Virus record (IMG/VR): IMGVR_UViG_3300024493_000235
Location: 160,001 to 224,000 of that record
DNA length: 64,000 nt
Reading direction: 5' to 3' (one strand)
Source: a virus
Taxonomy: Duplodnaviria > Caudoviricetes
Positions 10,129 through 61,038 of the stretch are shown here, piece after piece (position 1 is the stretch's first letter; the number at the start of each line of letters is the position of its first letter). Both the position numbers and the translations under genes were made by a program. The notes beneath the pieces are model-generated. The model saw only the letters and a list, made by a program, of their open reading frames with translations, was not told where the DNA came from and ran no database searches.

Positions 10129-10899
10129 ATGGGACCAGAAGATTTGGGGGAGATGCTTTACGAAGGAAAAGCAAAAAAATTGTATGCCGTTCAAAATTGG
10201 CCAGAACTTGTTGTCATAGAATATAAGGATGATGCAACAGCCAATAACGGAGAGAAGAAAGGACAGATTGCGAACAAAGGAAAAATAAATAATGCGATTG
10301 CATCAAAATTATTTGAAGTCCTTAAAGCCGAAGGCATTCCAACACATTTTGTCCGTAAACGTACTGATACCGAAATGGTGTGTAAAAAAGTCGAGATCAT
10401 AAAACTTGAAGTCATCATCCGAAATCTTATCGCCGGTTCCATGGCAAAACGTCTTGGAATTAAAGAGGGGACGGCTCCCGAAACGACAATCTTTGAGCTT
10501 TCGTACAAAGACGATTCGCTTGGCGATCCTCTTATTAATGATTATCACGCCGTCGGAATTGGAGCTGCGACCTTCGAAGAAATTGAGACCATTAAGACTT
10601 ATGCGTTCAAAATCAATAGGATACTCAAGAGATTCTTTTCTAAACGAAGAGTGAACGTAGTCGATTTCAAACTTGAATTTGGACGTGTTATTGATGAGAA
10701 TGGGGAAGTAACACGTGAGATTGTTCTCGCCGACGAGATATCTCCTGATACTTGTCGGTTCTGGGATCAAAAGACAAATGAAAAACTCGACAAAGATCGG
10801 TTCCGTCGGGATCTTGGCGGCATTGAAGAAGCATATAACGAAATTGAGGCAAGGATCCTTATGAATGACGACGAGGTATCGCGTATATGGAAGACATAA
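10129..10899 (+). CDS. purC: SAICAR synthetase
   Basis: [40 protein letters not shown]. Confidence 0.95.
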
Positions 10900-28918: not shown

Positions 28919-28960
28919 CTTAAGTGTGGGACGCAAAATCCCACACTTAAGTTTTTATTT
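28919..28960 (+). terminator. rho-independent terminator after tubulin
   Basis: CTTAAGTGTGGGA / TCCCACACTTAAG 13-bp stem plus TTTTT. Confidence 0.8.
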
Positions 28961-29390
28961 ATCATTACGTCAATGGATACATTAGGGTCTAGTTTTATCA
29001 CGCTAGTGGTAAAGCGCCTCCTTTCAGCGTCCGTTTGCACCGATATACCACTCGGTGTACATATTAGAAATGCGCTATTAGCCATGGATGTATTTCTAGT
29101 AATGACGCAAAAAGACATGCGGATTGTATGTCGCTTCTATACATACGGTTCTTACTCGATCGTATAACGAATTCGATTTTCTGTCAAGCCGCAAACCGGA
29201 AATTCGTCTTCGTACCCATGATCTTAATGTATCCATTGATCTAATGATAAACATACAAAAGTTAATGGATTGACCAAAATGGTCGCGCTATTTGGTTAAG
29301 AATAGCTGTAGTAATTTTTGTGTGTTATCTTGGGTCCGCGTAAATCTTCCTTTACGTAAGCGCTATTACGGCGCTTACGTTTATTTTTTT
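28958..29390 (+). ncRNA. candidate ~430-nt structured non-coding RNA (RNA-1)
   Basis: ~30-bp closing stem 28958-28989 / 29220-29251, internal hairpins with G-U pairs on +, 3' hairpin, terminator 29354-29390, no credible ORF. Confidence 0.6.
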
Positions 29391-36275: not shown

Positions 36276-36364
36276 GTATATATCATATAACTGTGTAGAA
36301 ATATTAACGGTTAAATACGCCCAGTTATGGGCGTATTTTTTATTTTATTGAAAAGGAGTAAATT

Positions 36365-36772
36365 ATGTCTTTAGAAAACCCTCTTATATTTGTACTTGCA
36401 ACAATGGAGCAAGACGACTTTACGTTACTTATGAGCCCTGATTGGATTCTCGAAAGAGTAAACGTGCCGATGGCAAAATACATATGTGGAAAGATATGTA
36501 CTTGGATTGTGCTGGATGGGATAGAAACGCCCATTAAAACCGACCAGGTTCACGAAATGGTCGTGAATTCGCATATGAAAGAACAGTTGTGTGAATTCGC
36601 AAAAGAGAAATTCATTAAATGGGCGAGTAAACCACATTATATCGCTGTCAAAGGCGAAAATTTTCAAAATGAAACTCTCTATGGAAATAACTGGATGCAT
36701 GCCATATCTTTATGGAGAGACCTTAAACGCGCAACGGGGGAGAAATATGAAAAATACCAAACCGGAGATTAA
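36365..36772 (+). CDS. DUF4160-like paralog
   Basis: FIKWA...NNWMHAISLW; promoter motif at 36277. Confidence 0.5.
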   Translation: MSLENPLIFVLATMEQDDFTLLMSPDWILERVNVPMAKYICGKICTWIVLDGIETPIKTDQVHEMVVNSHMKEQLCEFAKEKFIKWASKPHYIAVKGENFQNETLYGNNWMHAISLWRDLKRATGEKYEKYQTGD

Positions 36773-56670: not shown

Positions 56671-57348
56671 ATGCTGACAGTAATAACAAAAAATCTCTTT
56701 AAAAAGCCAAAAAAAATAACACTTGCAAGAGCCATTCAAATAATTGAAATGGAAGACCCGTATATCACAACAGATTGGCATCTTGGAAAGTTTATTAACA
56801 AACAACAGACAGAAGCTTCTTATCAGGAATATATCGAAAAGACAAAGAAAATGATTGACAGACTTCAAAAAGCTGTAAAACCTGGAAAACCGATGTTGTG
56901 TCTCGGAGATATTACAGAAGAAGAGATGTATGACGAAGATTTGATTAAATGGCTTTACAACACCGTTGTTACGATACATGGAAGTCCAAAAATTTTAATA
57001 AAAGGAAACAACGATATTTTCGATGATGAATTTTATTATAAGCTCGGATTTGAATATGTGACAAAAAGAAATATCGTATCCGATAAACTTCGAATAGTTT
57101 TTTCTCATGAGCCTGTGTCTATAATAGACATGAAACTCTCCGAAAAGGATTGGCTTAATTTGCACGGACACAGTCACGGATCCGGTAAATTATACAACAT
57201 GCAACCAGGGGATGCTAATTGTCATTTGGATGCTTTTCCGGATTACAATTGGCAAGGCGTTCAAAAACTCTCGTACTATCTTAGCATGTTTCGCGCACAT
57301 CCTGAAAAGTATAAGTGCGACGTTATTTATAAATACGGGTGGAATTAA
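56671..57348 (+). CDS. calcineurin-like metallophosphoesterase
   Basis: TDWH, LGD, KGNND, FSHEP, HGHSH. Confidence 0.85.
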   Translation: MLTVITKNLFKKPKKITLARAIQIIEMEDPYITTDWHLGKFINKQQTEASYQEYIEKTKKMIDRLQKAVKPGKPMLCLGDITEEEMYDEDLIKWLYNTVVTIHGSPKILIKGNNDIFDDEFYYKLGFEYVTKRNIVSDKLRIVFSHEPVSIIDMKLSEKDWLNLHGHSHGSGKLYNMQPGDANCHLDAFPDYNWQGVQKLSYYLSMFRAHPEKYKCDVIYKYGWN

Positions 57349-57359
57349 AGGAGACACAC

Positions 57360-58523
57360 ATGAAAAGCTTGGATGATTATATTCCAAAAATCCCTATGGG
57401 TCTTGATGACAACGTTATTGATGTAGAAGACAATATTTCATACGAGATTGTCAACGCCCTTTCTGAATTACATTGTACAACATCGGATTTGTTACAAACA
57501 GAATCCGAACTGGTTTTAAGATATATTTCAGACGAATATGGTATATCGTTTGAAAATGTCGATGCGGATATCGGCATACAAATAGGGATAAAGCCTTCAA
57601 GAGATCCGCATACAGGAACACCGAATGTCCTTGATGTCAAAATCAATTCAAGGGTCGGATTCTTTGAGTCTTTGGCAAAAAAGATGCGGGATTTGGCGCT
57701 ACGAGTTGCAACCGCTATTCGTAACTTTTTTGTATCAATCCATCATTTTTTTCAATCCAAAATTAGCAAAGTGGACAATATGCTTTTACATGCTAATTTT
57801 TCTATCGTTGATAAATATTACAGCGATACATCAAAATCTTGTAAGATAAAACTTACAAAGTATATGATAAATGATCCTATTGCTGAATACAAAAAAGATC
57901 AAGACGTATTGCGTCTTGCAGTTCCAAGATTAAAAGATGCAATTATTACCCTTGTTGATCATATCGAAAATCCTATTACACTGCAAGAAAAAACTGGAAG
58001 TAAAAGTGATATGTACGTCACATACCAAAGAGACAGGGATGAAATCCAAACTCTATTTGATGAAATCTTTGGAAAGCTTGCAGGGCCTCACGTTAATCTC
58101 GAAATGATTCATGAAATGAATATCGCACGTGTTATTCGGCTTAAATACTTTGGAGATAAGAAAACCTCTGATATATTTGAAGTTCGAGATGTTATTCCAA
58201 ATAAAGAAGTATTTGATACCATAACTTCTGATAATGCGTATCATTCATTTAAGAATTTATTCAAACAATCCGATGAATGTCTTGAAATCGCATTGAAAGT
58301 CGCTAACAGGTTTAACAAAAGCCTCAGGATGATGTATAATTCTCCTTCGACTGTATATACAGAAATACAAGGAGTTATACTTAAATTTCGAGGTCTTCTT
58401 ACAGCTTTATTGTACACGAATATCGCATATTGGGAATTATATTTTTCAATACGACAGAATGCTTTGGCAGCCCTTCGTGCAATCATAAGAGACGATGTTG
58501 AAAAACAAGTTTCAAACAAATAA
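57360..58523 (+). CDS. probable internal head protein
   Basis: ISFE motif after an acidic N-terminal region, then an amphipathic helix typical of phiKZ-like head proteins. Confidence 0.45.
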   Translation: MKSLDDYIPKIPMGLDDNVIDVEDNISYEIVNALSELHCTTSDLLQTESELVLRYISDEYGISFENVDADIGIQIGIKPSRDPHTGTPNVLDVKINSRVGFFESLAKKMRDLALRVATAIRNFFVSIHHFFQSKISKVDNMLLHANFSIVDKYYSDTSKSCKIKLTKYMINDPIAEYKKDQDVLRLAVPRLKDAIITLVDHIENPITLQEKTGSKSDMYVTYQRDRDEIQTLFDEIFGKLAGPHVNLEMIHEMNIARVIRLKYFGDKKTSDIFEVRDVIPNKEVFDTITSDNAYHSFKNLFKQSDECLEIALKVANRFNKSLRMMYNSPSTVYTEIQGVILKFRGLLTALLYTNIAYWELYFSIRQNALAALRAIIRDDVEKQVSNK

Positions 58524-58536
58524 AGACAAAGAAAAT

Positions 58537-58568
58537 AATGCAGGGTGGCTAACAGCCACCCTGCATTA
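58537..58568. terminator. terminator hairpin
   Basis: TAATGCAGGGTGGCT-AAC-AGCCACCCTGCATTA. Confidence 0.7.
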
Positions 58569-58645
58569 AAGAGGTGATAATCTCTCCATATTATATCTCC
58601 CCAGGCCCAACCAACACATATGATTTAGGAGAGTCTATATATGGC

Positions 58646-59085
58646 AAAAATAAAAGCGGCAGGGGCAATCTGGCCCCTGCCGCCCGGCGGATCTGCAGCC
58701 CGATTCGGAATATAAATCCCGGACCGGTTTTCTTTAGTCTGCTAGATTGCGCCACTCTGAACCGCCGCGATTAAGCGGCAGTTAATAAAAATGACATGCA
58801 GGGCTTAGCATTGGCATGGCGTACCACATTATAATAGAGGCTTGCCGCCGCGGGAACAAGCCCGTGGCGGTGCATACTATAATGCGGGTTTTTAATCAGC
58901 GCCGGTTAGACGGGGTAACGGTTTTATCCATAATCCGCGGTAGTCGCCTTTGCATTTATCGCCCTACTGGGATGCCTTTTCCCGGATATTCTTTGGGAAG
59001 CGCGGCAGCTTTCCGCGCGACCTTTATCCCGGATCGCCGTTGCTAGCAAACGACAAGGCATTTTACATGGAACATGTCATCTTCA
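58646..59085 (-). ncRNA. candidate ~435-nt structured non-coding RNA (RNA-2)
   Basis: GC-rich island with many hairpins. Minus-strand TATATATCAT promoter motif at 59103-59094; closing stem ATGACATG/CATGTCAT (59080/58791); minus-strand terminator GCGGCAGGGGC...GCCCCTGCCGC plus T tract. Confidence 0.65.
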
Positions 59086-59130
59086 CTACATAGATGATAT
59101 ATACGTAAAAACATTTTTGTTTCACGTATA

Positions 59131-59565
59131 TTATCCTGAAGCGTAACCGTTATTGAAAAACCAATTTGATATTGTACAAGCTATGATTGGACTTGTTTCA
59201 TGGTTTATAAAGTTTACAATAATCGGTGTACACCTTGGAACAATCGGATGCTCGATTTTCTTCGATTCATAAATGTGGATACGCATAGATTCATGCACGA
59301 TTTTACTCGGCGTTGTAAGCTGTATCAAGACTGTACAACCTATAAGTCTTGATTTGTCAAGATCACTTATTTCAGGTTTCATGATCTTTTTTGTCACGAC
59401 TCTTGTTTCATTCGAGTATCTTGTCATTGCGTATATAGTTGTTTCTCCCATTTGAAAAGCTTCGTTTGGGATATTAGTAATACGATCCGCCAAGTGTTTG
59501 ACTGGATCCGGCTTATAAAAGTCGTGACTTGTAAGAATTTTGCATTGTGTCATTATTGGGTTCAT
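59131..59565 (-). CDS. hypothetical protein
   Basis: 144 aa. Confidence 0.55.
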   Translation of the reverse strand: MNPIMTQCKILTSHDFYKPDPVKHLADRITNIPNEAFQMGETTIYAMTRYSNETRVVTKKIMKPEISDLDKSRLIGCTVLIQLTTPSKIVHESMRIHIYESKKIEHPIVPRCTPIIVNFINHETSPIIACTISNWFFNNGYASG

Positions 59566-60335
59566 TGTCTTATATACCCTCGTATATCCTTGATATCGTG
59601 AAAGATATTTTCACGAGTTAGGAAATCTTTAGGAAGAATATCCTGCCAGCATGATTGTTCTGCTGTTAAACATCTTATATCATTAGGAGATATTTTCCAT
59701 CCTCCGTAAGTTCCATCTACATACAGTGGATTTATCATCATTTCCATGTCGCTTATAAGCACGTTCTCCGCAATTTCTCTTTTTGTTAGATCTGTTTCGG
59801 GATCGCCGTCAGCATCGTATAACGCATAATACATCACCATAGGGCATGATGCTATCATAAACGATTCATGTACAGCATTAAAGATTGCCTTACGTGCATA
59901 CATAGAGAATACCAAAGCTTTATTTTGGTTATCTTGAAGTTTTGTTCCGCTTGAGTATCCTGTCAATTTAAGAAGTGCGAATGCGCTACAAAAGACTGCA
60001 TAATATGCCTCTTGGATGAACGAGCATTTGAACGGTGTATGTATAACTTTATTGTATCTCTCTTCAAATGTTGAGCTCACTACATTTCGACGTAACTGTA
60101 TGGGGTTTATGTATATAGCTCCATGTTTACTGTCTTCAAGGTTGTTATTTGCATATGGAGATATTATAACAGGTTCAAGGTGTTGGTATTCCGATACGTC
60201 TCTTGTAATTTTTCTGTCCATGAGCATGTATATGGCGTTTGAGGCTGCCGTCACATACTGCTCCCAAAGTTTTGCTTGCTGAGAGTGCAATATTTCCATA
60301 CGTTTTCTCACATATTCATTTATGCTATAACGCAT
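59562..60335 (-). CDS. hypothetical protein (distant member of the tandem family)
   Basis: ISPY...AYYAVFCSAF. Confidence 0.6.
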   Translation of the reverse strand: MRYSINEYVRKRMEILHSQQAKLWEQYVTAASNAIYMLMDRKITRDVSEYQHLEPVIISPYANNNLEDSKHGAIYINPIQLRRNVVSSTFEERYNKVIHTPFKCSFIQEAYYAVFCSAFALLKLTGYSSGTKLQDNQNKALVFSMYARKAIFNAVHESFMIASCPMVMYYALYDADGDPETDLTKREIAENVLISDMEMMINPLYVDGTYGGWKISPNDIRCLTAEQSCWQDILPKDFLTRENIFHDIKDIRGYIRQ

Positions 60336-61038
60336 AATTAGAATCTATGGCGTCAGTTGACCTAGGTCTTGCCATCATTTTTAACTCCTCGATATATCCA
60401 GACATTTTATCGTCTAATACATCAAACTGTGTGGGATTATCTCTACATGCATATTTTAATTTTGTGAAATGCTCAATCCAAAAATCGTATATGATAAACA
60501 ATGAAGGCTGGTACCCTTCTGCTAAGAAGTTATTAAATGATCCTCCTGAGAACATCGGTCGCAAGATATCGTTTTCTATAAGAGAGAAGATGGCCTGCGA
60601 TTTATCTCCAACTTGAGGGTTAAGATATATCTGGGGCACTACAGAGTTTAAGAATTGATAGATGTATGCTTTCACTTCATGTATGAAGAACGTGATGCGA
60701 TTATAACTTAAATCGTTAACTTCTGACATCTCAGAACACCAAGCAGCACATAACATCGCAAAATATGCCTTCTGTAAGTTTGTCGCATTTTTATTTTTAT
60801 CTCTTATCGAAAGATACGTGCTTTTATAGTTCCTTCCTGTCGATATTCTGTACAAATACGTTTTAGGAATATGCGATAACCCACCAAAACTCGATCCGTC
60901 ATACTGAAGAAACGGAGATTCTATTATTCCTGTTACAACGATACTTCCGCCTAAATCAAGCATCACTTTACTATCAATGCACATGTACAATACTTTTGTA
61001 AGTTTTTCCATTATAGAATGGATCATCATTTGGTCCAT
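60325..61038 (-). CDS. hypothetical protein (distant member of the tandem family)
   Basis: ESPF...AYFAMLCAAW; AAGGAGG RBS. Confidence 0.6.
   Translation of the reverse strand: MDQMMIHSIMEKLTKVLYMCIDSKVMLDLGGSIVVTGIIESPFLQYDGSSFGGLSHIPKTYLYRISTGRNYKSTYLSIRDKNKNATNLQKAYFAMLCAAWCSEMSEVNDLSYNRITFFIHEVKAYIYQFLNSVVPQIYLNPQVGDKSQAIFSLIENDILRPMFSGGSFNNFLAEGYQPSLFIIYDFWIEHFTKLKYACRDNPTQFDVLDDKMSGYIEELKMMARPRSTDAIDSNYAL

Follow-up and report, generated by a model that had tools for sequence, protein, structure and literature searches.

A probable structured non-coding RNA gene, inserted between two convergent genes of a jumbo phage and absent from the same junction in its relatives

The GC-rich stretch that separates two convergent genes in the phage genome studied here is probably a real, independently transcribed gene for a structured non-coding RNA, encoded on the minus strand and here called RNA-2; judging from its sequence, we give this interpretation a probability of about 0.6. 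An earlier, sequence-only reading had described the stretch as a GC-rich, structured and non-coding minus-strand unit with its own promoter and terminator, and all the sequence-level tests available support that description. The most economical reading is that of an orphan "RNA moron" gained by this phage lineage. The signals bracketing the unit, its fold statistics, its missing coding potential and its insertion between the two genes are established directly by the analysis that follows.

The phage record comprises 268,442 bp, is estimated to be 91% complete and has a GC content of 36.8% over its whole length. The window, namely the entire stretch of 64,000 nucleotides that was analysed, corresponds to bases 160001-224000 of this record, and coordinates refer to it unless otherwise indicated. 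RNA-2 occupies a gap of 607 nt (58524-59130, GC 0.481, or about 50%) between genes for proteins of 394 and 144 aa, neither of which has a Pfam match. The elements of the locus are arranged as follows.

57339-58523, plus strand: gene for the 394-aa protein
58536-58568, no strand assigned: bidirectional terminator hairpin common to the convergent genes, a 15-bp perfect inverted repeat
58569-58644, no strand assigned: spacer of the inserted block, missing from the junction of the relatives
58685-58646, minus strand: intrinsic terminator, found by terminator scan, pair probability 0.95
58686-58753, minus strand: predicted domain 3, a bulged stem-loop with terminal hairpin CGGGAU/AUUCCG
58761-58782, minus strand: predicted domain 2, an 8-bp hairpin ACUGCCGC/GCGGCGGU, pair probability 0.99
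58783-59088, minus strand: predicted domain 1, branched, about 300 nt, from minimum free energy (MFE) and partition function
59094-59111, minus strand: phage promoter, with core TATATATCAT at 59103-59094 and TTTTTACG before it
59099-59131, minus strand: AT-rich hairpin (inverted repeat I9, 12 nt, 92% complementary)
59131-59565, minus strand: gene for the 144-aa protein

The GC content, which had been said to rise markedly above that of the flanks, does so: 200-nt windows give 0.495-0.515 across 58600-59100 against 0.30-0.37 on both sides, and the unit itself has 52% GC. Genome-wide there are 25 gaps of more than 250 nt without an ORF, among which that of RNA-2 alone exceeds a GC of 0.42, while the other islands of high GC in the genome consist of coding sequence. 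The only other copy of the stretch lies in the Logan SRR10402454 assembly of the same phage, with 100% identity, and no repeats of it occur elsewhere in the phage genome. The sole tRNA gene of the 268-kb record, a tRNA-Cys with anticodon GCA (G000:C1:244881-244954), lies far from RNA-2.

The phage promoter that had been claimed immediately upstream on the minus strand is confirmed by an exact core with the usual G and T-run before it, oriented towards the GC-rich block, and by the frequency of its motif: TATATAT[C/A]AT has 66 exact copies in the genome versus 0-6 in first-order Markov-simulated genomes, and 42 of these 66 are followed within 70 nt by a ribosome-binding site (RBS) and a start codon. 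The motif also lies upstream of genes in two distant relatives, L002 and L003; in relatives whose proteins are only about 35% identical its core was seen at 10632 (minus) in L002, 8476 (minus) in L003 and 4463 (plus) in L005, the copies shown for L002 and L003 standing directly ahead of an RBS and ATG. It is therefore conserved across the phage group. Elsewhere in the window, at 36277-36366 on the plus strand, an exact core TATATATCAT is followed almost immediately by a GC hairpin and T-run (ACGCCCAGTTATGGGCGT TTTTT), and the RBS with its ATG (36366) comes only after the hairpin, giving the appearance of an attenuator-type leader. For RNA-2 the start region is likely UGUAG, at about 59090-59086, just past the promoter. 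At the opposite end, the strong minus-strand terminator claimed downstream is equally clear, with a stem (58685-58654) of 13 pairs, ten of them G-C, a loop of 6 nt and the U tract UUUUAUUUUU behind it.

A different account of the same signals starts from the AT-rich hairpin at 59099-59131, which lies directly past the stop of the 144-aa gene, overlaps the upstream part of the promoter and has no U tract, so that read-through from the upstream operon into RNA-2 is possible; RNA-2 may then also be carried as a 3' extension of the messages of that operon. In its strict form, this account takes the structure to belong to the minus-strand operon upstream (59131-61038 and beyond), as its long 3' UTR or as an RNA derived from its 3' end, serving as a cis-acting stabiliser or released as a processed product. 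It draws on the fact that this hairpin, which is no U-tract terminator, is all that separates the RNA from the stop of the 144-aa gene (59131), and therefore the strong terminator at 58685 would end the transcripts of the operon too. However, a perfect promoter stands directly before the structured part, and expression of the same operon in the relatives proceeds with nothing behind it but a 37-nt hairpin; we therefore regard the 3' UTR account as quite unlikely and retain an independently transcribed RNA as the preferred reading.

For the predicted minus-strand RNA (59092-58646) the MFE is -181 kcal/mol, and the z score is -5.1 over 100 shuffles and -6.4 in a separate run. The plus strand also folds better than expected by chance (z -4.1 to -4.25), and GC-matched coding islands of the same genome lie between -0.06 and -2.8. 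Ensemble diversity is 29.6 for the minus strand, against 107 +/- 27 for its shuffles (minimum 55) and 81.6 for the plus strand, and the minus-strand fold is more stable than that of the plus strand by about 9 kcal/mol. The G-U evidence for strand, previously judged to be mixed, is indeed so, each strand having 15 G-U pairs in its MFE structure without discriminating between them; the strand is assigned because of the promoter, the terminator, the advantage of about 9 kcal/mol and the well-defined ensemble.

Nearly all helices of the predicted fold have a probability above 0.8. Domain 1 is closed by a 15-bp helix of 59088-59074 with 58797-58783, which pairs the extreme 5' end, and contains an AUGCCUU/AAGGCAU arm, a GCGCGG/CCGCGC hairpin and a long hairpin (58887-58824); its helices have probabilities of 0.77-1.00, with a single 2-bp helix lower, at 0.38. 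In domain 3 the values are 0.96-0.99, and only one isolated pair falls below them, at 0.66. The four stems listed beforehand are all present in the minus-strand MFE structure, at 58845-58870, 59000-59018, 58972-58978/59055-59061 and 58824-58836/58875-58887, with pair probabilities of 0.83-1.00. Among the unpaired positions A is frequent and G scarce. One apical loop carries the 6-nt palindrome GCUAGC (59047-59042), which could, as a lead only, serve for loop-loop dimerisation of RNA-2. Two further complementarities, one of 9 bp between a loop and domain 3 (59051-59043 with 58745-58737) and a potential one between 58753-58741 and the terminator loop, are no more than chance would produce in an RNA of this size.

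Stable folding is common between the genes of this phage: many other intergenic gaps have z scores of -3 to -7, and one of -13, in estimates that are noisy at 15 shuffles each. Therefore, foldability alone neither singles out RNA-2 nor proves function; what sets its gap apart is the GC content, the lack of a downstream gene and the absence from relatives. Rough values of about -5 to -7, again from 15 shuffles, were obtained for the gaps 66568-66855, 69411-69834, 70600-71126, 78997-79434 and 139937-140264 (G000 coordinates), and this genome seems generally prone to RNA structure between its genes. The window contains a further large, structured stretch of non-coding sequence at 28950-29291 on the plus strand: a promoter-like TATTTATCAT stands at 28956, and five or six hairpins are enclosed by a helix of about 21 bp between 28969-28989 and 29220-29240. 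Its z score is -6.8 (326 nt, 100 shuffles), its GC content 39%, and at E<=1 it has no Rfam match apart from noise. Given its position upstream of an ORF that starts at 29292, this region could be either a long, structured leader or one more non-coding RNA.

Could the many inverted repeats at this convergent intergenic junction instead belong to an element that works as DNA, for instance an origin of replication or a site for packaging, partition or recombination? The stretch has neither iterons nor tandem repeats and is not AT-rich, and it lies between a promoter and a terminator of the same orientation; moreover, relatives that would need the same essential site do not have it. A role at the DNA level is thus scarcely probable, and the signals continue to favour an RNA product.

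With regard to coding, the verdict that the stretch holds no credible protein is borne out. Each of the six frames of the gap contains 7-12 stops, no gene was called inside it on the independent Logan contig, and the short ORFs match nothing in protein databases and nothing significantly in Pfam, where the best E of 0.094 falls far short of the cut-off. A recoded ORF was rejected as well, for a long frame opens only if TAA is reassigned, and TAA is the stop of the neighbouring genes. There are nevertheless ORFs of 34-76 codons, and a rival explanation would have the locus express very small proteins, either from a 24-codon ORF at 58642-58716 (plus) or from a 45-codon ORF at 59061-58924 (minus). 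The former, MAKIKAAGAIWPLPPGGSAARFGI, has AGGAGAG 7 nt before its ATG at 58642 and overlaps the 3' end of RNA-2, including the terminator, in antisense orientation; together the two might form a pair resembling a type I toxin-antitoxin system. Yet no phage promoter was seen upstream of it on the plus strand, its 24-aa peptide is rich in proline and glycine and not membrane-like, and the minus-strand ORFs have no RBS. The 24-codon ORF is probably a product of chance, and we find it very improbable that small proteins account for the locus; a non-coding transcript remains the preferred reading.

Comparison with known RNAs leads to no family. Rfam 15, which covers GOLLD, ROOL, OLE, raiA, HEARO, 6S, RNase P, SRP, group I/II introns and pRNA, gave no match at gathering threshold over the whole window, and at E<=10 only three short fragments within the body of RNA-2: a 32-nt generic terminator, a 21-nt plus-strand hairpin and 23 nt of the XIST A repeat (3' end). 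ARAGORN and Rfam, two of the checks that had been proposed, return neither a tmRNA nor any known family at RNA-2. The suggestion of a tmRNA deserves separate consideration. The string AKATTADYG, ending in a stop, is present as described (minus strand, 58953-58924, the tail of the 45-codon ORF), and had been likened to the resume-codon context of tmRNA; RNA-2 also resembles tmRNAs (RF00023 and the two-piece variants) in length, and at a threshold of 70% ARAGORN reports a 'permuted tmRNA' over 58651-59118. The likeness does not withstand closer analysis. At its default and 80% thresholds ARAGORN finds no tRNA or tmRNA at RNA-2, in agreement with the earlier failure to see a tRNA-like domain; its 70% calls overlap one another, are equally good on both strands, extend to flanking coding DNA and predict a different tag, and are therefore noise. 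The tmRNA models of Rfam are equally empty here, RF00023 matching the whole genome only once, elsewhere and with 8 bits. Whereas a tmRNA has a tRNA-like domain, an acceptor stem and CCA, RNA-2 has none of these and ends in a terminator, and SmpB (PF01668) is absent from the phage record. Consequently, as far as sequence tests go, the resemblance to tmRNA has to be abandoned, and the probability that RNA-2 is a divergent, possibly two-piece, form is practically nil.

Several other classes of RNA were considered and rejected on the evidence of sequence. Retron msr-msd, the template of a diversity-generating retroelement (DGR) and group II intron RNA are dismissed on the absence of a reverse transcriptase domain (PF00078) from the 268-kb record; omega or reRNAs of TnpB/IscB on the absence of a TnpB-type nuclease domain (PF07282), together with flanking proteins that lack Pfam matches and have orthologues in relatives without the RNA. 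A sponge of CsrB/RsmZ type is not supported by six GGA motifs, mostly paired, where 7.5 are expected, nor a type III antitoxin of ToxI kind by a sequence without tandem repeats.

In evolutionary terms, the locus can be compared with that of phages that share its gene order. An exhaustive HMMER search with the 394-aa protein recovered relatives of 35% identity or lower. In two of them, L002 and L003, the genes to either side are arranged as in the window, and the flanking proteins are 33-39% identical to those of the window; a Coptotermes gut metavirome is the source of one of the two (PMC5759034). In both, the convergent genes are 37 nt apart, with one hairpin between them. The phage of RNA-2 has an equivalent hairpin at 58536-58568 and then an extra block of about 560 nt. 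RNA-2 is therefore a lineage-specific cassette, as far as this junction is concerned, to which the statement of its absence from L002 and L003 refers; on these alignments of gene order, the absence amounts to a gain in the present lineage, two independent losses being less parsimonious. In the more distant L005, L006, L007 and a contig of ERR12035932, homologues of the 394-aa protein lie among several adjacent, co-oriented genes of about 300-420 aa, which suggests a tandemly amplified family, the likeness of the neighbours being one of gene size and orientation alone.

Homologues of RNA-2 itself were sought in several ways. Searches with blastn against phages and plasmids found none, nor did a degenerate pattern together with tblastn over viral, metagenome and genome contigs, in which the two longest open frames stood in for the DNA of RNA-2, or exact and IUPAC patterns taken from two of its sub-domains. 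As regards relatives of the phage, scans of viral contigs with single proteins (both flanking proteins and the DNA polymerase) produced no match, word-based protein searches returned only the phage itself and no close kin, and a GroEL scan for a hint of the host gave nothing.

From where, then, did the cassette come? The other folded region, at 28950-29291, has only 39% GC versus 52% for RNA-2, which suggests an outside origin and not a composition that folding demands, and RNA-2 probably derives from a source of higher GC. The spacer contains a promoter-like half repeat, TATATATGGCAAAA (58636-58649), which has its counterpart at the opposite end of the unit (59098-59111); this direct repeat, D4, of 14 nt with 11/14 identical and a spacing of 462 nt, thus marks both borders. 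Insertion possibly occurred by recombination at such promoter-like repeats, of which a 14-nt repeat is too short to give more than a hint.

The same observations are also compatible with a less interesting history, in which the unit is the decaying remnant of horizontally acquired, higher-GC DNA, a dead moron with a functionless transcript; a unit so specific to one lineage could be recent junk. This history would explain an orphan of foreign GC that is absent from syntenic relatives and has no homologue in the collections searched, and it also accommodates a promoter and a terminator that are still recognisable. But a decayed coding fragment would not be expected to fold 5-6 SD better than its shuffles, or to adopt a single well-defined structure on precisely the strand that has the intact promoter and terminator, and the GC-rich coding islands of the same genome show no such folding. 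On balance we find a dead remnant rather unlikely and favour a gained RNA gene.

Transcription, the exact ends and any function of RNA-2 are what we infer from these features, in the following form. From the standard phage promoter at 59103-59094, transcription would begin near 59090 and yield an RNA of about 440 nt, which would end at the terminator (58685-58646), remain untranslated and adopt a compact fold of three domains, its 5' end being held in the 15-bp helix and its 3' end formed by the terminator hairpin. A 5' end locked in a helix combined with a 3' terminator hairpin is a layout typical of stable non-coding RNAs, and it is in this respect that RNA-2 would resemble them. The cassette itself was, most parsimoniously, gained between the two convergent genes in this phage lineage.

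As to what such an RNA might do, no antisense target with complementarity of at least 14 nt was found in the phage genome beyond the promoter itself, and pairing with the repeated early-leader hairpins of the phage is no better than that of shuffles. Because long complementarity is lacking and leader pairing stays at chance level, a decoy or scaffold for protein is favoured over antisense action, and we tentatively propose that RNA-2 may act in trans by binding, sequestering or scaffolding a protein during infection. A bolder proposition is that it founds a new class of large ornate phage RNAs, made by a nucleus-type jumbo phage from a standard promoter and working with no base-pairing to targets; examples could be RNA-only assembly via the GCUAGC loop, or a decoy against a host RNA-sensing defence or an RNA-processing enzyme. 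We consider this proposition unlikely. Whatever its role, RNA-2 is plausibly a new orphan structured RNA. It is cleanly delimited to about 440 nt, has a confident predicted fold and is a demonstrable add-on with respect to related phages, and for these reasons it is tractable in vitro while the phage is uncultured.

Orphan non-coding RNAs, abundant and of unknown role, are known from jumbo phages. The closest precedent is provided by the jumbo phage PA5oct, in which RNA-seq revealed four such RNAs, ncRNA001-004, of 236-619 nt, free of ORFs, of unknown function and without database similarity, highly expressed, two of them abundant from early infection, and with no recognised promoters (PMC7318152). 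RNA-2 is likewise an ORF-free jumbo-phage sequence, a few hundred nucleotides long and without similarity in databases; it differs in that it is known from a predicted promoter, terminator and fold alone, whereas the PA5oct RNAs are known from RNA-seq, and there is no sequence similarity between them.

A looser analogy is offered by GOLLD, ROOL and OLE, large multi-domain non-coding RNAs that are often borne by phages and have unknown functions. RNA-2 resembles them in being large, multi-domain and A-rich in its unpaired segments, but with its 440 nt or so it is smaller, no tRNA genes lie next to it and no Rfam model matches it. Both ROOL and GOLLD have been seen by cryo-EM to form homo-oligomers of RNA only (PMC12286853).

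With regard to the mode of gain, finally, RNA-2 can be compared with morons and with the promoter-early stem-loop (PeSL) cassettes of T4-type phages, which recombine at promoter/stem-loop repeats (Arbiol et al. 2010; PMC2839356). Like these, it is an extra unit between conserved genes, absent from the junction of relatives, with its own promoter and terminator and a composition unlike that of its neighbours; it also has promoter-like repeats at both ends, which are short (11/14 identical) and could be due to chance. It differs from PeSL cassettes in that its promoter is the motif of its own clade and not sigma-70-like, and from both kinds of element in its payload, which is an ORF in theirs and a structured RNA in RNA-2. 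On this comparison of sequences, the moron route of gene gain would be able to deliver RNA as well.
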